Assembly: GCF_964194155.1 (NCBI RefSeq)
Contig: NC_135896.1
Span: 94,488,001 to 94,552,000, forward strand
Source: Cetorhinus maximus
Taxonomy: Eukaryota
DNA: 64,000 nucleotides
Reading direction: 5' to 3'
A program made the position numbers and the translations under genes. The notes beneath the pieces were generated by a model. It saw nothing but the letters and a program-made list of their open reading frames with translations, had not been told where the DNA came from and searched no databases. Within the stretch, counting starts at the first letter, position 1; each line of letters starts with the position of its first letter. This document shows, one piece after another, positions 1,000-61,500 of this stretch.

Positions 1000-1333
1000 T
1001 AAATAAAAGCAAAATATTGCAGATGCTGGAGCTCTGAAATAAGAATAAAATGCTAGAAAAACTCATGTCTGGTAGCATCTGTGGAGAAAGAAACAGTTAA
1101 TGTTTCGAATCCAATATGACACTTAGAAAAAGCAAAACACTGCAGATGCTGGAAATCTTAAATAAAAACAGAAAATGCCGGAAATAGTCAGTAGGTCAGA
1201 CAGCATTTGTGGAGAGAGAAACAGAGTTAACATTTCGAGTCCATATACCTCTCCTTCAGAGCTTTTCCAGCATTTTTTCCAGAGCTTTTGCAGCATTTTC
1301 TGTTTTTATTCCAATGTGACTCTTCTTTGGAAC
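1000..1333 (-). mobile_element. Two nested short Penelope-derived elements (family 1); inner copy 1125-1310
   Basis: Two copies of the GCAGATGCTGG...GTTTCGA motif. The inner copy is flanked by CCAATATGACACTT (1111-1124) and CCAATGTGACTCTT (1311-1324). Confidence 0.75.
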
Positions 1334-2537: not shown

Positions 2538-2686
2538 TGCGGGGCAACAGAAACGGCACTGCGCCTGCGCAGCAACGGCGTGCGGGGCAACGAAAACGGC
2601 ACTGCGCCTGCGCAGGAGGGGAGTGCGGGGCAACGGAAACGGCAGTGCGCCTGCGTCGGAGGGGAGTGCGGGGCAACGGAAACGGC
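2538..2686 (+). repeat. 43-bp promoter minisatellite, ~3.5 copies, each with GGGGCAAC and an NRF1-like site
   Basis: TGCGGGGCAAC recurs at 2538, 2581, 2624 and 2667 (period 43). TGCGCCTGCGCA lies at 2560 and 2603, and TGCGCCTGCGTC at 2646. Confidence 0.92.
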
Positions 2687-3420: not shown

Positions 3421-4599
3421 TCCCCCCCCCCCGTTTTTTTTTTAATATCTCAATCCCACCTCCCCATGTCTTTAATTTCATTCAGTGGTCAGGGAGCATC
3501 CATCCTTTTTTTTTCGGCCAGCTCTGTCGGTTTAAAACTAGACTAAGTTTGGCCTAAATTTCCAATTTTTATTTTGTCAGACCCGATCTTTGAGAATGAG
3601 GACATTTTGTGGAGATTTTCATGTTTTGTCTTGAATAGAATGAAGGATTTAAGCAAAGGGGGGGTGGTTGTGTTAGCAAATAGAGTTGTCTCACTGCTGG
3701 CTGGTTTTCAGTTTTCTGATTATCTGTGGACAGTGTGGATTGTTTATTTGTGCGGTCTCCTCATCTGTGCTTTTTTTTCCCCCATAAGTCATTTAACCTG
3801 AAAATTAGTGATGCTAGTGAGGATTTGATGGTGAAATATATTCCATTTGAAGCCAGAAGTATACCATGAGGTGCATGTATGCCACAAAAAAGGGGCAGAC
3901 ACACTATCAATCTAAACTGTTGTTGGCTGACTGCTCATCAGGATTTTTAATTGGAATTTATTGAGAAACCTGAAGCCACATTCATTGCATTGCATCAATG
4001 TGCATTCTGTAGTCCTGGTCCCATGGCTACATTGTAATTTCTCACATGGATTCAGCATTGGAATAACTACACATACACAAACTTCTCGTGATGGAGAGCT
4101 TCTACTAACCAACGTCACCATGTTTTCTTGGTACTTTATATACCAGGGAATTTAATGGCAATGGAACTGCGCGCGTGTAGTTGTGGCGATGTTGCCAATT
4201 TTCTATTTTTGCTAGATTTCCTACAGTGTTTGTAAGGTTCACGTAGTAACGGCAAACTGCTTTGCTGGCTTGTTTGGTCAAGCCAAGAGCTCAGCCTTAT
4301 ATGCCTAAAAACTGTGGACCTCATGGAAGTGCAACCGGTGGTAGCATCTTTGATACAAGTGACATTTTGCTGTCAAGAGTACTCTGCCTCATTGTCTCCA
4401 TGGCAGCATCAGTGCTGGACCTGTTGTGCTACAAGCATTATTTTTAGCACATTTGCCTCTGGGCCAGAAAGCTTTGGGCTCATGCCCCACTATTGTCCAG
4501 AGCATAAGATCTAGATTGACAATTCACTGCAGTACTGAGAGAAGAGTGCATTGTCAGCTGTTACCTTTTGCATGAGAAGTTAGGTTTGAGATACTGGGA

Positions 4600-4777
4600 T
4601 AAAAACAAAAAACTACTGCGGATGCTGGAAATCCAAAACAAAAACAGAATTACCTGGAAAAACTCAGCAGGCCTGGCAGCATCGGCGGAGGGTCATGAGG
4701 ACTCGAAACGTCAACTCTTTTCTTCTCTGCCAATGCTGCCAGACCTGCTGAGTTTTTCCAGGTAATTCTGTTTTTGT
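4600..4777. mobile_element. Palindromic short Penelope-derived element (family 1) with 15-bp TSD
   Basis: TSD TTTGAGATACTGGGA at 4585-4599 and 4778-4792. Inverted arms CCTGGAAAAACTCAGCAGG / CCTGCTGAGTTTTTCCAGG. Confidence 0.85.
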
Positions 4778-7636
4778 TTTGAGATACTGGGACCATTTCC
4801 CCTGGCACAGAGAAGACGAAGAGGAGAAGGTTTAAAATTATGAAGGGTTTTGAGACAAGTAAGTAGGAAAAGACTATATTTTCTAGTTGTGGGGCAGTGT
4901 TAGGAGATGGGGGTTAATTTAAAACAGTTAGGAGAGTTAGAATAAAGTTTCAGGAACATGCAATGCTTTGTGATAGGGGGCAGCCGAAGCAGAGGCCATT
5001 GCATCTTTTAATGGAAGAGAGAAATGTTTGAAGGTACAAGACTTGTGATAAATAAGAGTAATGGGATTAGTTTTCAATTGTTCTAGCAACAAGTTGGATC
5101 AGCCATTTCACCAAAATGCCTCCCCTTGTATTGTAAACTCCTGTGGTTCTATGTTCCCACTGCACCTACTAACCTTTCCAATATCAAGGTAATTTCACTT
5201 GTAAAAAGAAAGCATCAGCTAGCACAAACCAGAATATTTCAGCTTCAGTCCCATTTGTGCAAAGTCAGCTGACCTCAGCACTATGAAAGAAACACAAAAC
5301 AAAACACATCAGATGTCAATTGCCTTCCATTGACGTGTCTGGAAAATAAATGCATTCATGGACACTTGGCAATAACAGGATCTGCCCGGCTGTAACATCC
5401 CCTGTTGTCAGTTTCAAAGAATGGTTAATTTGGTGATATATCAGAAGGTGGCCATGAAACTCTTATTAGTGGGAGGTAAACAGGCAAAAAAGCTGTAGAG
5501 CTACGTTTCTTCTAGTTAACAATCATTTGCAAAAATTATATTTCAGACACACAATCGGTTGCTGGTTGACTAGCAAAATGCTAGTTAATTGACAGTGCTA
5601 TGTGTATTTTGTTATGCATGTTCACAACTAAAATGCAGATAATCTGTAAATTATTCCAACAGCCCAAAGCAGCATTCCTTATCCTTCCAGCAGAACCAAC
5701 AAAAACCTTGCATATTTAACCAATTTGTTGAAATGCTGCTTGCAGCCACTAAAATGATAGCAAGTGAACTGCAAAAATGCACAAATTAAGCAAGAATTCT
5801 GGTAACCTGGAAATCATCTGTGAGAGGTTCCAATCCTGTTTACCCAAGTGAATAATTGACACATTATTTACTGCTTCCTCAATACAAAATCCCTAGTGTG
5901 CACATTTTACAAACCGGGATTATGGATAATGACGAACAGGGAAAGACCCTCTGGTTTATCTATTCTAGACTGTCCCACTGTATCACAATGTAAACACTAT
6001 TGAGGGTAATTAGAAAATCTGAATTTTGGGGAGAGTTTCCTGCTCTTCCTCAAATAGTGCCATAGAATATTTTACATCCATCTTGACAGGCAAACATGGT
6101 TTCACTTCTCATTAATTTATAGTTTGCTATCATTTAACATCAGTCTGGTCAGTCTATGCTTCACATTTTCAGTTATTTTATTGCCCTTTTTATAGAAGGG
6201 TCCCCAAAACTCTACACTGTACTCTAACTGATGTAACAATTCCCTCGCACAAGCTCTTATACTCTATTAATAAACCCCAAATTCTTTTTTAAATGATTTT
6301 ATATACATGCATCAAACTTTCAAATGATTATTATCACGCTCCTTGTTTTTCTGCATTAATTGGCAATTATAACAGGCAGCAATTGCTGATGCCAAATGTC
6401 ATCACTGTTAGTTTCCTGGCCCATGTTAGTGAAGAACAATTTTTCATTTCAAGCAACTGCTTTCAAATCTTGTTTTTTTTACAAGTTTTTGGAGATTGAG
6501 AAAATAACCAAGAACTGCTGAAGTAGATTGATAACTTACCTGACCAGAAGGACATATTCTACCACGGTTTCTGCTAAATGTTGAGCATCTTTGTCATTGT
6601 ATTTCTTGTTTTTCATTGTAAGATACAAGCACTCTCCCCAAGCATTGATCAAGCATGAAGCTTGATGGTGAATGTCAGAAGCCTACCAGCCATTCACACA
6701 ATATGCATTTGGCAGGGACCCTGAATAAAGACCAGGACTGAGAACCTGAGCTGGTTTTCCCCTCACAGGCCCAAACTCACTAACATGAACAGGAATTTGC
6801 CCCTCGAGCATGTTTCACCATTCATTGAGATAATGGCTGATCTGTGAGATAATTCCATATACCTGCCTTTGCCTCATTTCCCTTAGATTTTTGTTAACCA
6901 AAGATTTTATCAATCTCAGGTTTAGAGTTAACAATTAATCGAACACTAGTTGCCATTTGCAGAAAGATGTTCCAAACTCCCGCTGCTTTTTGTATGTGTA
7001 AGTCTTTCCTAATTTCACTCCTGAAAAGCCTGGCTCTAATTTTTCGATTATGCCCCTTAGTCCTAGATTCCCCAGCCAGCAGAGATGCGGTATGTTGGGG
7101 GAAACTATCTGCTCCCTTAATATCTTGACAAATTGTAGAATGCCATCTGCTGCTATGCTTGGATCAGTGAATGGGTCAAGTATCTGCCTGGTTTGTTTGG
7201 CGCCACTTCATGCTGGATGAACTCATTGATCTTAAGGGGAGTGGGAAACCATGATATTAAGTATGCACTGTACACCTTTCCAAAAGATGAATATAAAATG
7301 GTTCTAAATATCAAGGAGTGGTTCAGCATTCATTAAAGCTGCAAACAAGCAGAATTTAGTTGCTGCAATCATTGAAATGTCCTTGTTTTGGGCTTTCATA
7401 AGTTGCCTCAACAGTTAAACACACTGCGAAAGAAGCAGATTCTCTGGAAGCAAAACACTTTGTTGCCCTGATCTTCTGTAAATCTAGAATGTATTAATCT
7501 AGAATATCTTTTTATCCTTGTGTTGGATTCCTTTGAAGTTCCCAGGCTGAAATGCTATCATCTCAAACTGCATGGTGGCTGTCAAGAGGCATTTTCACTG
7601 TCAGTGTCACTTTGTGTTCCAGTCAGTATGCAATGA

Positions 7637-33774
<26,138 letters not shown>

Positions 33775-41418: not shown

Positions 41419-43193
41419 ATAATATTTCCTTCAACAATTTGCTGTACTCTCTTCAACTTATTTCTTTTACTTTTTACTTGCAGATAAAGTTATTTGTTAT
41501 CTGACAGCCTGTCTTCATATCTCCTTTATAGTTATTCTAATCTGCACTGCCCCTCTAAACCTAGTTTTCTTTGTGTAAATACCTCAGGATTTGTTTTATG
41601 TTTCTTTAAGTCATTTTAATTCCTCTGCTTATCCAAGGAACTCTAGCTTCTGCTGCACACCTTCAGTTCAAGCAGGATTACGTCCGGTTCTGGAGCTCAA
41701 CTGCGTAAATGTGGTGGAGAGAGTTTTCACCTGTGCCGCACCTTAGTGCCCAGTCTGATTGTTGTGAATATCTGGAAATGGATCACCAGGTTCAGGTAGT
41801 GCATAGCTTGCGAGTCCCAAGAAGCAACAGCAGGATGAGGGAGGGGGTGTTGTGGGGGAGGAGAGTCTTGATCTTAATGTAAGCTTTCAACAATTTATCA
41901 CTTAGCCTAGAATGAACTTGAAAACTCTACACCACTACTAATGAGTGCTAGAATCACCGTGACAGTAAGTAAAACACAATTTTATCATTGATAATGCCGC
42001 GAATTGTGCAATGTTTATGCGCCAATTTTTCTGTGGTGTGATTATAATTTCACTCATAGTCTTGGCATTCCAAGTACGCTATTATGAAACTATAATTAGT
42101 AAGTACTTTTTTAATGATTGGATTTAGCACATTTTTCTCTTGAAAGAAAGCTGAAATTTATATGTCAGAAAACTCCAAGTGCAAATCAGATGAAACCGTT
42201 CATTAGACAAAAATCTGAGAAATTACTTTTTTACCTTTTACAATGATTCCGTTCATTGTAGAAGGGACACTTCTCTGTGTTAATTAAGTGGTTTTAACTT
42301 TTAATATCGATTGGAGCGTTGTGTTTAATTCTGGGCACCGCACTTTAGGAAGAATTTCATACTCTTGGAAAGGGTCCAGAGGCATTTGAGTGCCTTTCAT
42401 GGTACCAGTAATGAAAGACATCAGTTATGTGGAGAGACTAGAGGAACTGGGTTTTCCTTAGATCAAGAAAGTTTTACAGGAAGATTTGATAGAGGTCTTC
42501 AAAATCTCGAAGAGTTTTTATAGAGTAAGTGAGGAGAAAATGTTTCCAGTAGCCAGGTTTAAAACAACTGGGAAAGGAATCAGAGACGAGATAAGGAAGG
42601 TAAAAAACAGGCAGTAAATAAAAAGGGCGGTGGAAGCAGATTCAATAAAACTTTGAAAAAGGAATTGGATAAATATTTGGGGGAAAAAATTGCTGGGCAA
42701 TGGGGAAAGAGGGATTAATTGAATAGATTTTTTCAAAGAGGTGGCACAGGTGCGATGGGACAAATGGCCTCCTTCTGAGCTATGTTATTCTATGATGTTA
42801 TGAACTGGCCTGTAATTATCTGGATATACCCTACTTTTTTAATGGGCATGAGATTGGCTCCTCTTCAGTCCTCCCATGCACGCTCACTTTCATTTGAACC
42901 CTAAAATATAATTACTTGGGCCTCCACTATTTCCTCATCCATTACATCAGGATCCTTGGATGTACAACATCAGGTCCTGGCACATTGCCCTCCTTTAACA
43001 GAGCTAACACTTTTATTTATTATAATGTCCAATCAGAATTTACCTCTTCCTCCATTGATCACTGTGTGTTTACCCTGGTTGAAGAGAAGTACCACAATTT
43101 ACACTTATTCTCAACTAACTCACTACTCTCTTAAGGGACTCACCTTACATTCGCTGATCTTTATTCAGAATACTTCACAGTTTTAATATTTTT

Positions 43194-43416
43194 AATAAAA
43201 ACAAAATACGGCGGATGCTGAAAACCTGAAAGAAGAACAGAAAATGCTGGAAAAACTCAGCAGGTCTGATAACATCTGCGGAGAGAGAAACAGAGTTAAC
43301 GTTTCGAGTCCGTATGACCCTTCTTCAGAGTCATACGGACTCAAAACGTTAACTCTGTTTCTCTCTCCACAGATGCTGTCAGACCTGCTGAGTTTTTCCA
43401 GCATTTTCTGTTTTTG
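43194..43416. mobile_element. Palindromic short Penelope-derived element (family 1) with a canonical hammerhead core on the minus strand
   Basis: TSD TTTAATATTTTT (43182-43193 and 43417-43428). The minus strand from 43328 to 43294 reads CTGAAGA-A-GGGTC-ATACG-GACTC-GAAACGTTAAC. Confidence 0.85.
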
Positions 43417-43545
43417 TTTAATATTTTTGAGATACTCTCTCCTTGCTCACCACATCCTTTCTCTTTACAAATTTTCTTATTTTGATGGTACCCGTAGACC
43501 CCATAATTCTATACCTTTCAATTTCTTTGTTTATAATCTCTATAT

Positions 43546-45390
43546 GAGGGATTCCCAAACTGTGGGTCATGACACCCAGTGATTTCACGGGATGGAATGT
43601 TGGGATTGTGAGCTCCAAGGGTGTAATGGCAGCCATGGAGCAGATGCTCTGTTGGGAAAGTCCAGGTTCCGAGGTCACATGCTATGCGCACCCGATTCCT
43701 ATTTTTCCCAGCTCACAGTTCACTGGAAGGGGAGAGGAGGTGAACCTTCAAGTGCCCCCATGCATGACAGGATCACATTAATCAAGGGGACTCTTGGCTG
43801 GAAGATCAGTAAGTGGGGGAAGGAGGTCATGCTACAATTGAAGGGGCGGGGGCGAGGGGATGGGGTCAGCAAGTATAGCCTCAGTGTGCAGAAAGTTCCA
43901 GAACTCCTCATTAGCATGGTGCTTCTGTAACCTGGAGCTGAACATATGAAAGTCAATTACCAGCAACTTGCAGCTCACGCCAAGGACACTTTTTTTATTA
44001 AAAACAAAAAGCTAAAAGCTACTGCGGATGCTGGAAATCCAAAACAAAAACAGAATTACCTGGAAAAACTCAGCAGGTCTGGCAGCATCGGTGGAGAAGA
44101 AATCAGTTAACGTTTCGGGTCTTCATGACCCTTCGGCAGAACTGAGTATAGTTAGGAGAAAAGTGAAATATAAGCTGGTCTAAGGTGGGGGGGGCGGGGG
44201 GAGAGAGAAGTTGAGGGTGTGGTGATTGTGGAGATAAGCAAGCAGTGATAGGAGCAGATAATCAAAAGATGTCACAGACAAAAGGATCAAAAAGGTGTTG
44301 AAGGTGGTGATATTGTCTGAGAAAAGTGCTAATTAAGAATGGAAGACAGGATACTCAAGGTACAGCTCTAGGTTGAGGGTGTGGTGCGGTCTCCTCTACA
44401 TTGGAGAGACCAAACGCAAACTGGGCGATCGCTTTGCAGAACACCTGCGGTCTGTCCGCAAGAAAGACCCAAACCTCCCTGTCGCTTGCCATTTTAACAC
44501 TCCACCCTGTTCTCTTGCCCACATGTCTGTCCTTGGCTTGCTGCATTGTTCCAGTGAAGCCCAATGCAAACTGGAGGAACAGCACCTCATCTTCCGACTA
44601 GGCACTTTACAGCCTTCCGGGCTGAATATTGAATTCAACAACTTTAGATCTTAAACTCCCCCTCCCCCCATCCCCACCCCGTTTCTCCCCCTCCCCTTTT
44701 TTTTCAATAATTTATATAGATTCTTCTTTTCCCACCTATTTCCATTATTTTTAAATCTAAAACTAAAACTTTTTTAGTCTTTCCACCCCACCCCCACTAG
44801 AGCTGTACCTTGAGTATCCTGTCTTCCATTCTTAATTAGCACTTTTCTCAGACAATATCACCACCTTCAACATCTCTTTGATCCTTTTGTCTGTGACATC
44901 TTTTGATTATCTGCTCCTATCACTGCTTGCTTATCTCCACAATCACCACACCCTCAACTTCTCTCTCCCCCCGCCCCCCCACCTTAGACCAGCTTATATT
45001 TCACTTTTCTCCTAACTATACTCAGTTCTGCCGAAGGGTCATGAAGACCCGAAACGTTAACTGATTTCTTCTCCACCGATGCTGCCAGACCTGCTGAGTT
45101 TTTCCAGGTAATTCTGTTTTTGTTTTACACTTTTTTTATTCCAAATTTCTACCTCCATGATTTTTATATGTTTAAAGTTAAATGATGAAATATTGAAGGT
45201 TACTATCCTGCTGTTTTATTTCGGTGCCACCCACCATGCTCGACAAGTGAAGGCCACCCTCCCCCACTCAACAACTGAAGGCCAACCTCTGCTTAACAAC
45301 TCTCATATACCCCAAATTTTCACTCTGGGATCACATCCAGTCTGAGGCATTACAATGGGGTCACACTAGGAAAAGGTTTGGGAAGCACTG
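43546..45390. mobile_element. hAT (Charlie-like) MITE hosting the 44.0-45.1 kb Penelope insertion
   Basis: Ends GAGGGATTCCCAAAC / GTTTGGGAAGCACTG; 8-bp TSD CTCTATAT (43538-43545) / CTCTAAAT (45391-45398). Confidence 0.75.
44000..45126. mobile_element. Penelope-like retroelement remnant with GIY-YIG fragment and ~330-bp inverted pseudo-LTRs
   Basis: Arms ~44041-44371 and 44797-45126. ORF 44373-44654 reads CGLLYIGETKRKLGDRFAEH...GTLQPSGLN. 14-bp TSD ACACTTTTTTTATT at 43986-43999 and 45127-45140. Confidence 0.93.
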
Positions 45391-45464: not shown

Positions 45465-46220
45465 TGCCAGGCAATGACCATCTCCAACAAGAGAGAATCC
45501 AACCATCGCCCCTTGATGTTCAATGGCATTACCATCACTCAATCCCCCACTATCAACATCCTGGGGGTTAGTATTGACCAGAAACTGAACTGGACTAGCC
45601 ATATAAATACTGTGGCTACAAGAGCAAGTCAGAGGCTAGGAATCCTGTGACGTGTAACTCACCTCCTGACTCCCCAAAGCCTTTCCACCATCCACATGGT
45701 ACAAGTCAGGACTGTGATGGAATACTCCCCACTTGTCTGGATGAGTGCAGCTCCCACAACACTCAAGAAGCTTGACATCGTCCAGGACAAAGCAGCCCAC
45801 TTGATTGGCATCACATCCACAAACATTCACTCCCTCCACAGACACACAGTGGCAGCAGTGTGTACCAACTACAAGATGCACTGCAGGAATTCACCAAGGC
45901 TTCTTCGACAGCACCTTCCAAACCCACGACCACTACCACCTAGAAGGACAAGGGCAGCAGTAGATGGGAACAGCACCACCTGGAAGTTCCCGTCCAAGTC
46001 ACTCACCATCCTGACTTGGAAATATATCGCCGTTCCTTCACTGTTGCTGGGTCAAAATCCTGGTACTCCCTTCCTAAGAGCACTGTGGGTGTACCTACAC
46101 CACATGGACTGCAGCGATTCAAGAAGGCAGCTCATCACCACCTTCTCAAGGGCAACGAGGAATGGGCAATAAATGCTGGCCCAGCCAGCGACGCCCATAT
46201 CCCATGAATGAATTAAAAAA
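45465..46220 (+). mobile_element. CR1-superfamily LINE 3' portion (same family as 13652-14580; further 3' fragments at ~23480-23785, 47010-47400, 47950-48270, 60230-60915, 62240-62690)
   Basis: QVRTVMEYSPLVWMSAAPTTLKKLD peptide and the shared 3' end GGGCAATAAATGCTGGCC..CGCCCATATCCCATGAATGAAT-A-rich. Confidence 0.82.
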
Positions 46221-49200
46221 AATTTAGGAATTCCATTTCTTTTTCTCCAATTACTCCAGCCCTGCCACAATCAATCATAGAACCTTATAGTACAGAGCAG
46301 GACGTTTTGGCCCATCATGCTTGTGTTAGCCCTTTGAAAGAGCTGTCCAATTTAGTCCCATACACTTACCTTTACTAATGAATCCTCAAGTATATGTCCA
46401 ATTGCCTTTTGAAGGTTCCTAGAGAGTCTGATTCCAACACTCTCGTAGATAGTGTTCTGTGCGAAATAATTTCTCCTCTTTGCCCCTCTAATTCTTTTGC
46501 CAATTAAATCTTGTCACCTACCCATTTGCTATAGGAAATAAATTCTCCCTACATGTTCTATAAAAACACCTCATAATTTTGAATGCCGCTCTCATTTAAG
46601 GAGAACAATCTCAGCTTCTCCAATCTCTCCACATTACTGAACTTCCTCCTCCTTGGTACCACCCTGGTAAACCTCCTCTGAACCTTCGCCAAGACCTTGA
46701 CATTGTTCCTTAAGCATGGTGCCCAGAATTGTACACAATACTTCAGCTGAGGCCTGGCCTAGTCAATAACTTGTAGAGGTTTTGCATGACTTCCATATTT
46801 TTGTATCCAATGTGCCTGTTTACAGAGCCTAGTATTCCACACACTTTCTGGACTCCATTATCAACTTGCCCTTCCACATTCAAGGATCTGTGAAAAAGGA
46901 GCCCCAGGTCCTTCTGTTCTTGCACCTTCCTCAACATAGTAGCATTTAGATTATACTGCCTCTCCATATTGCTTCTCCCAAAATGCATCACTTCACACAT
47001 TTTTTTATTCATTCTTGGAACGTGGGCATCGCTGGCTAGACCAGCATTTATTGCCCATCCCTAATCGCCCTTGAGAAGATGGTGGTGAGCTGCCTTTTTG
47101 AACTGCTGCAGTCCATGTGGTGTAGGTACACCCACAGAGCTGTTAGGGAGGGAGTTCCAGGATTTTGACACAGCGACAGTGAACGAACGTCAATATAGTT
47201 CCAAGTCATGATGGCTTGCCAGTGGTGCAGTTTCCATGTATCTGCTGCCCTTGTCCTTCTAAGTAGCAAAGGTCATGGGTTTGGAAGGTGCTGTCTCAGG
47301 AGCCTTGGTGAGTTGCTGCAAAGCGTTTTGTAGATGGTACACACCGCTGCCACTGTGTGTTGGTGGTGGTGGGAGTGAATGTTTAAGGTGGTGGGTGGGA
47401 TTGATCACGCAGACTGCATTAGCTTGCATCAGCCATGTACCTGACCATTTAAGCCATTTATCCATGTCCTCCTGAACTCTGCTTCTATCCTGCTCACTAT
47501 TTACTATGCTGCCATTGTAACATTCGCAAACTTTGAAATTGCTCCTCTTACCCAAGTCTAGGCCATTTATATATAAGAAAGTAATTATCCTAATGCCAAC
47601 TTCTTGAGGAGTCCTTTGCATACTTCTCTCCAATCAGAAAAACATCCGTGAACTACAATCTGGCCCCTATCATTTAATGTCCCCGTGTTACCATCATCCC
47701 TTGAATACTATGTGCTTCATTGCAATATTTAAACCAGATGGATTTTGATTTTGCATAAATAAGTTTGTTATCCGGTACTTTATCAGGTGCCTTTTGAGTG
47801 TTCATATGTACAACATGGCACACCAGCTTCATCAACCCTTGCTTTTATGCCATCAAAGAAATCAATCAGGTTAGACAATTTGTCTTTATTCAAGGAATGA
47901 TCAGTTAAAATCATCTCCTCTCCTCAATCTATCTACAGATTTTTTTTTTTTACAGATTCGTTCACCGGGTGTGGACATCGTTGGCTATGGCCATCATTTA
48001 TTGCCCATCCCTAATTGCCCTTGAGGAGGTGATGGTGAGCTACTTTCTTGAACTGCTGCAGTCCAGGTAGTGTAGGTACACAGTGCTGTTAGGGAGGGAG
48101 ATCCAGGCTTTTGACCCAGTGACAGTGAAGGAACGGCGATATATTTCCAAGTCAGGATGGCGTGTGGCTTGGAGGGGAACTTGCCAGTGGTGGTGTCCCC
48201 ATGTATCTGCAGCTCTTGTCCTTCTAGATGGTAGAGGTTGCGGGTTTGGAAGGTGCTATCAAAGGACACTTGGTGGAGATGATGTAATCTTTCATGTGCT
48301 GAGTTCTGATGACATCTACTGGCAGTAAAAGGACAAGGATGCAGTCACAGGAAGCATTGAGTCTGTTATGTTGTGATTCATATCCTGAATTCAGAACTTC
48401 CTACAGTTCCATTATTTGCGTGCCTCACGCTGATGCCTAAATATGGAATTGATTTCTTTGTTGTATCAACTTGAGTTTAATACATGAAGAAGAGTTTTTC
48501 CTCCTGCATTTTCCTCAAATAATTAGTGGATCAGCAATATGCCACCACTAATGTAACAGCCCCTATTTTGTCATAGATCTCTAACTACATTGACTCTTTT
48601 TATTTATGTATTTCCCTTGTCTATTTCTGCTGTTCTTACTTGCTCGATACAATTGATTTTATTTTCCCTGCCCTTTTCTTCATAGCCTACATTATTCTTT
48701 ACTTCTCCATTACCTCTTTTGCCAGTTCATTAGCTCTTCTCTTTGAAATGTGACCAGTCCTTGCACAAAGCATTCATCTTCCACAAAACTAGTATGTGCT
48801 GCACTCAAGAATGGGAAACACTAGCTTGATATCAGACATTTGTGATACACAGAGTGCAGGGGGCCATGCGGAAAATAACAATGTTTAGACTTCAGCCAGT
48901 CAGCTCCCATGAGATAAGTCAACTGCTCCCAGTAAATCACAACTGGCCACAGCCAATGTTGGCCAACTGATTTCCAGTTGGATTTCCCAGTCATTCCAGC
49001 TGCTCCCAGTGCATATTGGTTATTCCAGGTAGAGACCGGTTAGGTATTGTTGCAGTTTTTGACCGGTTTCAAATGGTTTTTGCTTCTGGTGCCAATGCTC
49101 CATAAAATGGAAACCCTATTCCTGATGTAACTCCTGTAGCCATGTGTTAAGATTCCTAATCTTCCCAACTTTTCTTATTCTAGCATGGGGTTGGGGAGAA

Positions 49201-56363: not shown

Positions 56364-56665
56364 CACCTCTCCAATCTTCACCCACACCCCACACTCAATC
56401 AGACTCTACCCCACCTCTCCAATCTTCACCCACACCCCACACTCAGTCAGACTCTACCCCACCTCTCCAATCTTCACCCACGCCCCACATTCAATCAGAC
56501 TCCACCCCACCTCTCCAATCTTCACCCACATCCCACATTCAATCAGACTCTACCCCACCTCTCCAATCTTCACCCACATCCCACATTCAATCAGACTCTA
56601 CCCCACCTCTCCAATCTTCACCCACATCCCACATTCAATCAGACTCTACCCCACCTCTCCAATCT
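56364..56665 (+). repeat. 48-bp minisatellite, ~6.3 copies
   Basis: Unit CACCTCTCCAATCTTCACCCACA(C/T)CCCACA(C/T)TCAATCAGACTCTACCC starting at 56364, 56412, 56460, 56508, 56556, 56604 and 56652. Confidence 0.95.
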
Positions 56666-58520: not shown

Positions 58521-61500
58521 GTAAGCGAACCTTCTTCATTATAAACTGCATATCTCATTTCAACCAGTAAAGTGAGTTACCGTAACAAAAACAAAAATAC
58601 CTGGAAAAACTCAGCAGTTCTGTTGAAGGGACTCGAAACGTTAACTGTGCTCCTCCCCGCAGATGCTGCCAGACCTGCTGAGTTTTTTTCCAGGTATTTT
58701 TGTTTTTGTTTTGGATTTCCAGCATCCGCAGTGTTTTGCTTTTATCTTGGTGAGTTACCGTGTTTGCTTCTAATGGTGCCGTGAAAAGTTTGAGAACATT
58801 TTCAGTACTGTAAAGTCTGTAAAAATTCTGTCGCATAAAAACAATTAAGCATTTCAGACTGAAATACTTTGGGGCCCTGTTTCTGCCCACAGTGTTGCTT
58901 ATCCTAATGTACGTAACAATTTAGGTATCTGCAAGGTTAGGAAATTCACCCGGTGTTTTCTCTGCCTGTGTGTTTCTAAGCACCTCTCCAACGTCACCTT
59001 TGTCTGAGATGAGAGACTCCTGTATCTTCCTGCTGTTCTGCTGTTTCCACGATGTAGCACTGAGGCCACCAACATCTTGTGCTTTCTTGAACAGAGGTAC
59101 TAAATCACAGGATGGAGAGAAAGTAAAGTGCTTATGTTTTGGAAACCTCCATCTATCCAGCTGCTGGCCTCTGTTCAGGAGGAAAAGACATTTTCATGCG
59201 GCTGCTGTTACCATCTGCATAATAAATGTTAAATAATGAAATTCTAGCTATGCTAAAGACCAATGATTCAAAATACCACATGGTTTGAAATAAAATGCCT
59301 ACCGGCACTAATATCTTTTACTTAAAAAGCATAGTTTTACTGATGTTTGGGGACTCAGATGATACATAGGAAAACAACTTAGTAGTAGATTTAGAAATGA
59401 TTTGGCCAACACATTTTCTTGGAACTCCTGTACCTCAAAATTTGGCACTACACCCTTGATAAAGAATTGTCCTAATGTTATCAAAATTCAATGCTGATGC
59501 TAATGAGGTATGTTTTCTTGTGTAAAACTGAATATGGTCTGCAAACGTTTGCAATGGTCTTGTGTGGCATTTAAGGGCAATTCTGCTGCATAGGGATTGA
59601 TCTCAAGAAGATTTGATGATGAATGTTTAATTTCAGGGTCACGTTGTTCACAACTGGAAAGTGCGATGGTTCATATTGTCCAAGGACCAGCTTCTCTACT
59701 ATAAAATAGAGGGGGCAAAGAGAGAGACTCGTCCCAGACGTATCATTTCTCTGGAAGGATGTACTCTCCACTGCCCCTGTCTGGATTATGCAAACAGGCC
59801 GGTGAGAATTATAAAGCATGTTTGTGTGTTAATAAAATAATAAAGCATGTTTGTGTGTTCATAAAATTATAAAACATATTTCTGTACTATATGCTAATGA
59901 ATTTGTTTCTTTCAACTGTACAATTTTACAGTTGGATTTAAGATTCCATTTGCACCATCCTTTTCTGATATTCTCTTTATTGTTCGATAACTTTACAATT
60001 CCTGACTGATTTCCCTTTGCCCGTAACTCCCAGGGTCACTTCAGGCCATTGCATCATCTCTATTACCATTTCAACCGAGGTTAGCTAACAGCATAGACAT
60101 CAAGTCTGGAACTGCTTGATCTGTTTGACGTTGTTTTACACAGCATGTGGCATTTAGGCAACTAACAAAACTGAGTTCCCTCAAAGTTGTTTTAAGGAAT
60201 GCAAAGCACACATTTAAAAAATACTCAATACTTTCATGGGATGTGAGTGTCACTGGCATTGGTTGTCCATCCCTCATTGCCCCTGAACTGAGTGGTCTGA
60301 GGGCATTTCAGTTGTTACAGTATCAGTTTAATTTGTTCATGAAATGTGGGAGTGTTTGGCAAGGCCATCATTCCTAATTGCCCTTGAGAAGATGGTGATG
60401 AGCCGTCTTCTTTAACCACTGCAATCTGTGTGGTGCAGGTGCTGTTAGGGAAGGAGTTTCAGGATTTTGACCCAGTAAAGGGATAGAGATATACTTCTAA
60501 GTCAGGATGGTGTGTGACTCAGAGGGGAACTTGGAACTGGCTGTTTTCCCATGCGTCTGCTGCCCTTGTCCTTCTAGGTGGCAGTGGTCGTGGGTTTGGA
60601 AGGTGCTGTCTAAGGAGTCTTGCTGAGTCATTGCAGTGCATCTTGTATATGGTACACACTGCTGCCACTGTGCATCGGTAGTGGGTGGGTGCCAATCAAG
60701 TGGACTGCTTTGTTCTTTGTGATGTTGAACCCCTTGAGTGTTGGAGCTGCACTCATCCAGACAGGTGGAGAGTATTCTATCACACTCCTGGCTTGTGGTC
60801 CAGTGACGTTTTTGGTCAATGGAAACTCTCAGGGTGTTGATGGTGGGGGAGTTCAGTGATGGCAATGCTGTTGAATGTCAAGGGGAAGTGTTTAGACTCT
60901 CTCTTGTCGGAAAACGTTGTCACAGAGAACAAGTGTTTTACATTCAGACTTGATTCTATGTTTACCTATTTTCCAGCTGGTGATTAAATTGAAGACAAAG
61001 AACTCTGTTGAGCATTTCCTTGAAGCTTCTTCCCGTGAGCAGCGAGATTCCTGGGCTGCAGACATTCAAAAAATGATTAAAGCTTCTAACCCAGATCACC
61101 AAGAGCAACAGAAGTCTTCAAACGTGCACTTCGAAATACCAGCAAACATTTACCTCAGGTAAGTGTTGTTGCTCTGTTTGACAATCTGTTAATATGTCTT
61201 GTCTCTTTTCCCTGAGAATTTTCTCCTTCCTGTTTGTAAACTGTTAACTTATTCCAGAGTATAGTTCTACTTGGGGCGACAGTTCTGTAATGGCTCATCC
61301 AAATGGCCATTCTATTAATGCAAGACTGGACAGTGAATGCCAATTTAACCACATGGCATATGATGGACAAGCTTGATTCTGTCTTCATCCAATATCTACA
61401 CACATGTTCCAGCTGGAGTCACTACAATAGGAATTACAGAATCATAGAATCTTGCAGAAGGAGGCCATTCAGTCCATAGTTTCCGTGCCAGCTCTTTGAA

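Follow-up and report, generated by a model that had tools for sequence, protein, structure and literature searches.

The window analyzed here, a 64,000-nucleotide stretch of the Cetorhinus maximus genome (contig NC_135896.1, positions 94488001-94552000), carries EIF2S1 (eIF2-alpha)-like exons with matches to the S1 domain and EIF_2_alpha, two tandem repeats, decayed LINE-like fragments and insertions of a Penelope-like element (Table 1). The 43-bp repeat lies within a CpG-island-like stretch ~5 kb ahead of the first coding exon found, and the one LINE-like fragment that was checked matches RVT_1. Direct repeats of 12-15 bp flank five of the five insertions checked in the window, and no targeting of microsatellites was seen among these five. 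One insertion sits between two eIF2-alpha-like exons; positions 16463-17311 of it are 80% identical to an intact element (L210), and the Pfam GIY-YIG match of its ORF-end remnant is weak (E 0.051, below the cut-off). A younger insertion is 98% identical to L210, with both insertions aligning to the 3' end of that element, and the others are fold-back stubs.

Table 1 Features of the window, numbered from its first nucleotide
Feature	Position	Strand	Details
A6 hammerhead, older, decayed	1225..1263	-	
43-bp tandem repeat, GC-rich	2538..2686		3.5 copies
Fold-back stub, hammerhead cut before A9.1/G10.1	4600..4781		15-bp direct repeat at 4585 and 4778
EIF2S1-like exon	7637..8086	+	
Decayed LINE-like fragment	9413..10092		
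Decayed LINE-like fragment	14197..14583		
EIF2S1-like exon	14724..14870	+	
Penelope-like insertion, 5'-truncated, inverted arm, U6 subfamily	15904..17311		15-bp direct repeat at 15889 and 17308
Hammerhead, U6 type (CUGUUGA), mirror arm	15999..16039	-	private U16.1 to C; C3 16034
ORF-end remnant (GIY-YIG endonuclease)	16463..16821	+	likeness to L210, weak Pfam match
Hammerhead, U6 type	17205..17245	+	private U4 to C (core CCGUUGA); C3 17210
EIF2S1-like exon	22044..22163	+	
Decayed LINE-like fragment	23462..25576		
Head-to-head fold-back stub of two pLTR ends, ~230 bp	43194..43427		12-bp direct repeat at 43182 and 43417
Flagged minimal hammerhead, old A6 type	43294..43328	-	core CUGAAGA, canonical
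Parts of the flagged hammerhead		-	C3 43328; helix II 43320-43316 with 43310-43306; palindrome 43302-43299; H17 43298
Young insertion, 5'-truncated, inverted arm, C6 subfamily	43999..45126		14-bp direct repeat at 43986 and 45127
Hammerhead, C6 type, mirror arm	44103..44145	-	identical to 45022..45064 copy; C3 44139
Hammerhead, C6 type (CUGCCGA)	45022..45064	+	6-bp helix I; pair 10.2-11.2 G-C; C3 45028; H17 45058
Decayed LINE-like fragment	45651..48275		
48-bp tandem repeat	56364..56665		6.3 copies, 96% matches
Fold-back stub, U6 type, helix II partly deleted	58584..58749		12-bp direct repeat at 58572 and 58750
Decayed LINE-like fragment	60369..60877		

The original prediction read the copy within the ~230-bp stub as a minimal type I hammerhead in which the palindrome ACGU replaces helix III, and this reading holds. 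Helix II comprises 5 bp and is closed by G10.1-C11.1, while helix I is short (4-6 bp in the U6 and C6 families, i.e., those with U or C in place of A at core position 6). Within the palindrome (15.1-16.1), positions 15.2-16.2 are CG in 129 of 133 C6 copies and 75 of 123 A6 copies, the departures being CpG decay. An unpaired A between A9 and G10.1 is present in 214 of 214 parsed copies. This extra A had been presented as unusual, but nucleotide 9.1 is a published trait that stands in the consensus for these ribozymes, CUGANGAH (PMC4209133), which rules it out as a novelty.

A relaxed descriptor found three matches in the window versus none in 100 Markov-1 controls, and a 33-letter pattern had 34,887 exact matches in the 4.0-Gb genome, with none for its reversed control. 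Searching with Rfam models, a check that had been proposed, identified no hammerhead with an E value of 5 or less; the whole window gave just sub-threshold hairpin matches. The window motifs are genuine minimal type I hammerheads.

All of the motifs quoted in the original prediction are present in the window, but several details of individual copies needed correction. The copy near 4690 on the forward strand retains helix II and GAAACGUC but has lost its CUG core to the fold-back junction, which lies at that point. The proposed AGUU/AACU helix I is not uniform, as pair 2.2-1.2 is a C-A mismatch in 62 of the 123 A6 copies sampled. In the flagged copy the AGUU strand (the 5' side of helix I) is missing, since the junction lies immediately ahead of C3. 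The variant U/C at position 4 is present as the core CCGUUGA at 17210; it is a single-copy change rather than a subfamily state, with U4 found in 207 of 214 parsed copies. In the forward arm of the flagged stub (from 43327), the CUG (CUGAAGA) strand is absent and A replaces G12. With the 5' side of helix I lost at the junction and these defects in the partner arm, the flagged locus is unable to build a full double hammerhead from its own two arms. The flagged copy is also predicted to misfold together with the junction sequence. It is a dead fold-back stub with a canonical core.

Non-LTR retrozymes form head-to-tail tandems whose units span a few hundred bases and each contain a canonical type I hammerhead. 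We rejected this class for the window copies, which are stubs joined head to head, are flanked by target duplications and lie in no tandem array.

The host element

The motifs reside in the terminal repeat (pLTR) of a Neptune-type Penelope-like retrotransposon, a family that is very abundant and was active recently. The original interpretation, supported in part for the motifs themselves, left unstated that they form the ends of such an element. In L210, an 891-amino-acid stop-free frame with reverse transcriptase and C-terminal GIY-YIG regions ends ~365 nt before a CUGCCGA hammerhead, and its Pfam matches fall just under the cut-offs (RVT_1 E 1.5e-6; GIY-YIG E 4e-4). This frame contains DKG, YIDD and a C-x4-C-x2-C linker (residues 757-765 of P0001). 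A C-x2-5-C-x2-C linker is described as absent in Penelope and Poseidon (PMC8557442), and the clade is therefore likely Neptune, an assignment made by motifs only in a setting where Nematis shares a linker zinc finger too (PMC8557442). Neptune-clade EN+ elements have in common with the element described here a single ORF with reverse transcriptase and C-terminal GIY-YIG, the DKG motif and the C-x2-5-C-x2-C linker, as well as partial tandems, an inverted 5'-truncated arm and a one-sided tail (PMC8557442), the last two being standard for Penelope-like elements in general (PMC8557442).

The hammerhead lies after the ORF in L209 and L210 and upstream of the ORF anchor in tandem units. At 13 of 29 ORF-start loci, a sense hammerhead was found 304-310 nt upstream of this anchor, with C6 in all 13; full-length tandem copies carry C6. 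In the U6 and C6 families, inspection by eye of L247:1270-1510 revealed a GT after a conserved CAG near the pLTR end, together with a branch-point-like motif and a pyrimidine-rich CAG at the ORF anchor. Splicing of this candidate 5' UTR intron would put a conserved upstream ATG in frame. No matching joint was found among the contigs of four runs guessed to be RNA, a kind of data in which contigs cannot show absence.

Position 6 of the core

The motifs share with the minimal hammerheads of metazoan Penelope-like elements (Cervera and De la Pena 2014, PMC4209133) the type I layout, a 4-nt palindrome with no further helix III, the unpaired nucleotide 9.1, G10.1-C11.1 and a 4-6-bp helix I, along with the pLTR location, many solitary copies and several families per genome. 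They differ at position 6. The consensus and supplementary alignment rows available from that study, which used a descriptor with a fixed core, have A6, whereas 81% of exact matches here (43,419 of 53,839) are U6 or C6. A text search for a shark row in supplementary file 2 of that study found none.

Genome-wide exact matches to one 30-letter pattern covering A6, U6 and C6 numbered 10,420 for A6, 24,753 for U6 and 18,666 for C6 (reversed controls 0); the A6 count is biased low because older copies fit an exact pattern less often. The flagged copy and the 10,420 A6 matches have the consensus core CUGANGA-H ... GAAA, from which the remaining 43,419 depart at position 6. The U6 and C6 forms are thus variants, not members, of the published consensus. 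Among 108 copies picked independently of the core, 81 of them via a young-family anchor, position 6 was A in 20, C in 44, U in 41 and G in 3. G6 copies occur rarely, with three among the first 100 listed matches (e.g., L113).

We found that position 6 follows the phylogeny of the element. A tree of the terminal 330 nt of the ORF (i.e., with the hammerhead excluded) placed A first, then U, then C, with 6 label changes versus 25.3 when labels were shuffled. This tree has 60 rows, as 60 of 336 copies had the ORF end, and it keeps two rows (L212p9044 and L169p1414) that are paired with a neighbor's ORF end. Because the tree is midpoint-rooted, the direction from A to U to C rests on copy divergence: median nearest-neighbor divergence was 0.068 for AA, 0.050 for AU, 0.040 for UU, 0.018 for CU and 0.009 for CC. 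The C6 copies are the youngest, and ~30 of them are 100% identical over 137 bp. The counts and the ORF-end tree support the original claim that young subfamilies carry U6 and C6 cores.

These data also bear on whether the motif is a chance look-alike or a fold-back hairpin by-product, with position-6 differences arising as random decay after insertion. The flagged copy does sit at the center of a 200-bp palindrome in which Rfam reports no hammerhead. However, the empty controls, tens of thousands of identical matches, the agreement of position 6 with the ORF tree and the perfectly identical C6 copies make this explanation scarcely credible, and the genome counts and ORF tree refute the look-alike reading.

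Contig pieces at least 80% like a C6 copy were compared in one run each of organisms A, C and D, and most of them have U at position 6; among such pieces in contigs of a run from organism B, U is a minority. U6 is therefore probably older than these lineages, although A6 families may drop below the 80% likeness filter. A literature search found no report of U6 or C6 in these elements, with the proviso that Lunse et al. 2017 may describe them, and the available portions of PMC6765202, PMC6155905 and bioRxiv 2026.07.22.740005 added nothing on position 6. The ribozyme type and element class are known ones, and the core variant that they carry here is real, abundant and dated.

The same A6C change is described for the hammerhead of phage Bcep176, where it comes with low Mg activity and a preference for Mn (Perreault 2011, PMC3088659; Naghdi 2020, PMC7151607). 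Bcep176 provides a single phage sequence that acts as a monomer, whereas a minimal motif of the dimer type has C6 fixed in no fewer than 18,666 genomic copies here. Furthermore, C6 follows a U6 stage in the present family, and the accessible portions of those studies report no natural U6 (PMC3088659, PMC7151607).

Fold retention and insertion starts

The original prediction held that helix II is conserved while its loop varies across copies, and our comparison agrees. Helix II is 100% paired in 21 representative copies, among which pair 10.2-11.2 is G-U in 12, A-U in 7 and G-C in 2, and pair 10.4-11.4 is U-A in 17 and C-G in 4. In 133 C6 copies, a sample enriched by design for the youngest family, pair 10.4-11.4 is UA in 97, CG in 33, UG in 2 and unpaired in 1. 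Thus one of the five helix II pairs has changed on both sides, and one pair occurs in three types. A covariation test gave a divided outcome: the joint score of the two helices exceeded that of every one of 500 shuffles, whereas 83 of 500 reached the observed count of doubly changed pairs, and these tests are inflated by kinship among the 21 sequences. Judged from cluster majorities (221 of 336 copies fell into 19 clusters), the changes in helix II after the loss of A6 all preserve pairing, one double change included. Helix I lengthens to 6 bp, with 2.5-1.5 as C-G in 100 and 2.6-1.6 as U-A in 91 of the 133 C6 copies.

Across 12 non-A6 clusters, the 15 other core sites show no variation. This invariance is weak evidence because net U6-to-C6 divergence in the neighboring spacer (leaving out L212p9044, L169p1414 and L315) is only ~0.09 per site; the chance of 0/15 is P ~0.25 on one path and ~0.05 with branches twice as long, and a Fisher p of 9e-5 is inflated because the clusters had themselves been defined by the loop and H17. 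Conservation is also good in the 60 nt downstream.

Structure prediction suggested that the two substitutions have different effects. U6 was predicted to pair 4-7 with 14-16.2, hiding the palindrome, at a probability of 0.5-0.98 in five of five U6 haplotypes, and the same pairing was predicted at 0.04 or less for C6 C7. The predicted penalty for forming the active dimer drops from ~6.5 kcal/mol (U6) to ~2.3 kcal/mol (C6 C7), compared with 1.9-5.1 for A6 copies. The active dimer was never the predicted best dimer, and in a 110-nt context helix I was mostly not predicted to form. The youngest copy is predicted to fold as helix I plus helix II (z -3.2). An alternative helix joining G5-A9 with 16.1-1.3 was ruled out, with a predicted probability of at most 0.11.

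We surveyed insertion 5' ends in copies picked by a 3' anchor only (90 old and 96 young, all from the first 47 Mb of contig C1). Starts within 2 nt of the cleavage site were found in 2 of 90 old and 3 of 96 young copies (young p 0.10), and C6 families genome-wide had 58 starts at this site versus 40 at a control position 4 nt downstream (p 0.085). A genomic footprint of cleavage, i.e., insertions starting at the site, therefore showed no clear excess in the old set, the young set or C6 families genome-wide, the C6 excess being slight and non-significant. Of 30 cleavage-site junctions inspected (L319-L348), five are fold-backs in which the complementary strands of helix I made the join.

Insertion 5' ends concentrate, in old and young families alike, in a hot spot at the 5' edge of helix I (e.g., window position 45024, loci L289-L438). 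Starts between -2 and +4 of the A that opens helix I account for 21 of 90 old and 14 of 96 young copies, counts in which the arms of one insertion are taken separately and old alignments may end early in T-rich upstream DNA. Relative to the rate across the 28 nt upstream, this edge is enriched 7.0-fold in the old set (p 5e-7) and 3.9-fold in the young set (p 8e-4); the idea of edge clustering arose in the young set, and the old set, with many non-inverted copies, was fetched afterwards. The hot spot may mark the transcript start, and either a transcript start or a reverse-transcriptase stop could explain the peak. The young sequence at this edge resembles a polymerase II initiator.

Readings of the A6 change

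The reading that we favor, and regard as reasonably probable, is that cleavage was weakened, the fold was retained and the element copies uncleaved RNA. Source elements would have swapped the core A6 for U and later for C, which by analogy with other hammerheads likely weakened self-cleavage. The A6C change in a mouse-gut hammerhead yields 3.6e-6 per min in 0.3 mM Mg and 0.18 per min in Mn (PMC7151607), and low Mg activity with Mn preference was seen for A6C in two hammerheads (PMC7151607, PMC3088659), these rates having been measured in hammerhead types other than the minimal type I of Penelope-like elements. Pairwise mutagenesis of a type III hammerhead gave low activity for CUGA mutants, with no rescue (PMC9901934). 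The element would nevertheless keep spreading, likely by copying uncut RNA. A similar picture emerges from the green anole Poseidon element (Frangieh 2024, PMC11167929), in which the hammerhead also lies in the pLTR, reverse transcription starts internally and leaves a tail, and uncleaved RNA is the main template. Hammerhead mutants had no effect on in vitro insertion of that element, and cleavage needs protein (PMC11167929). The few starts near the cleavage site in the present survey (2 of 90 old and 3 of 96 young copies) also speak for an uncut template. The anole element belongs to the Poseidon clade and its ORF starts in stem II (PMC11167929), whereas the first in-frame ATG here is 184 nt after C3.

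Under weakened cleavage with a retained fold, the transcript would have the hammerhead close to its 5' end and might begin at helix I. A double hammerhead would arise where two RNAs, or both pLTRs of a tandem unit, pair via ACGU. In the predictions, the U6 monomer is locked in a rod with its palindrome hidden, and C6 frees the palindrome, leaving a well-folded but slow ribozyme. The fold is probably still under selection, whether the benefit lies in cleavage (slow or protein-assisted) or in the binding of protein. The stubs in the window would be inert by-products. Points against this reading are the limited weight of the core invariance, the single helix II pair changed on both sides, the slight C6 excess at the cleavage site, and the predictions in which helix I mostly fails to form and the active dimer is never best.

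A minority possibility, which we nonetheless take seriously, is that the hammerhead died when A6 became U and is now a relic whose letters are unchanged for lack of time or because of a role as DNA (i.e., an internal promoter or protein-binding site). The invariant core fits the low divergence of the master lineage at P ~0.25, the conservation of the 60 nt downstream fits as well, the predicted U6 pairing would occupy the palindrome in every U6 haplotype folded, and 5' ends cluster at the helix I edge as from a start site. Moreover, Naiad elements proliferate without hammerheads, and the authors suggest that hammerheads may parasitize such elements (PMC8557442). Against a relic, the subfamily-level changes in helix II all preserve pairing, the double change among them, helix I grows to 6 bp in the youngest families, and the youngest copy is predicted to fold into both helices; a DNA promoter has no need for RNA pairing.

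We consider it improbable that U6 and C6 ribozymes keep full activity inside cells, with the element protein, a partner RNA or Mn-like ions offsetting the missing adenine. Such activity would be in keeping with the efficient cleavage of C6 hammerheads in Mn (PMC7151607), with the protein-assisted ribozyme of the anole (PMC11167929), with the retention of G8, G12, C3 and the palindrome, and with a predicted active-dimer penalty for C6 C7 that is similar to or below that of A6 copies. It is at odds with the lack of a clear insertion pile-up at the cleavage site in either age class and with the deleterious effect of A6 changes in Mg (PMC7151607, PMC3088659, PMC9901934); even canonical minimal hammerheads are poor cleavers (PMC4209133).

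A more elaborate and rather unlikely scenario is that the lineage tuned the ribozyme down with U6 and then partly back with C6, under selection for lower activity. The U6 rod would have switched cleavage off and spared the template for transposition, alongside a burst of copying. C6, the longer helix I and a stronger helix II would then have restored a foldable hammerhead, gated by protein or metal, at the extreme 5' end of the RNA. If true, the family would document successive, dated states of a ribozyme in nature.

What hammerheads do for Penelope-like elements is debated, with essential processing, a conditional switch and a passenger all under discussion. Because this family supplies natural A6, U6 and C6 forms that are matched and ordered by age, the youngest of them with an open ORF, their role becomes directly testable. 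Descriptors that fix CUGANGA would miss about four-fifths of the best-preserved motifs of this element family in this genome.
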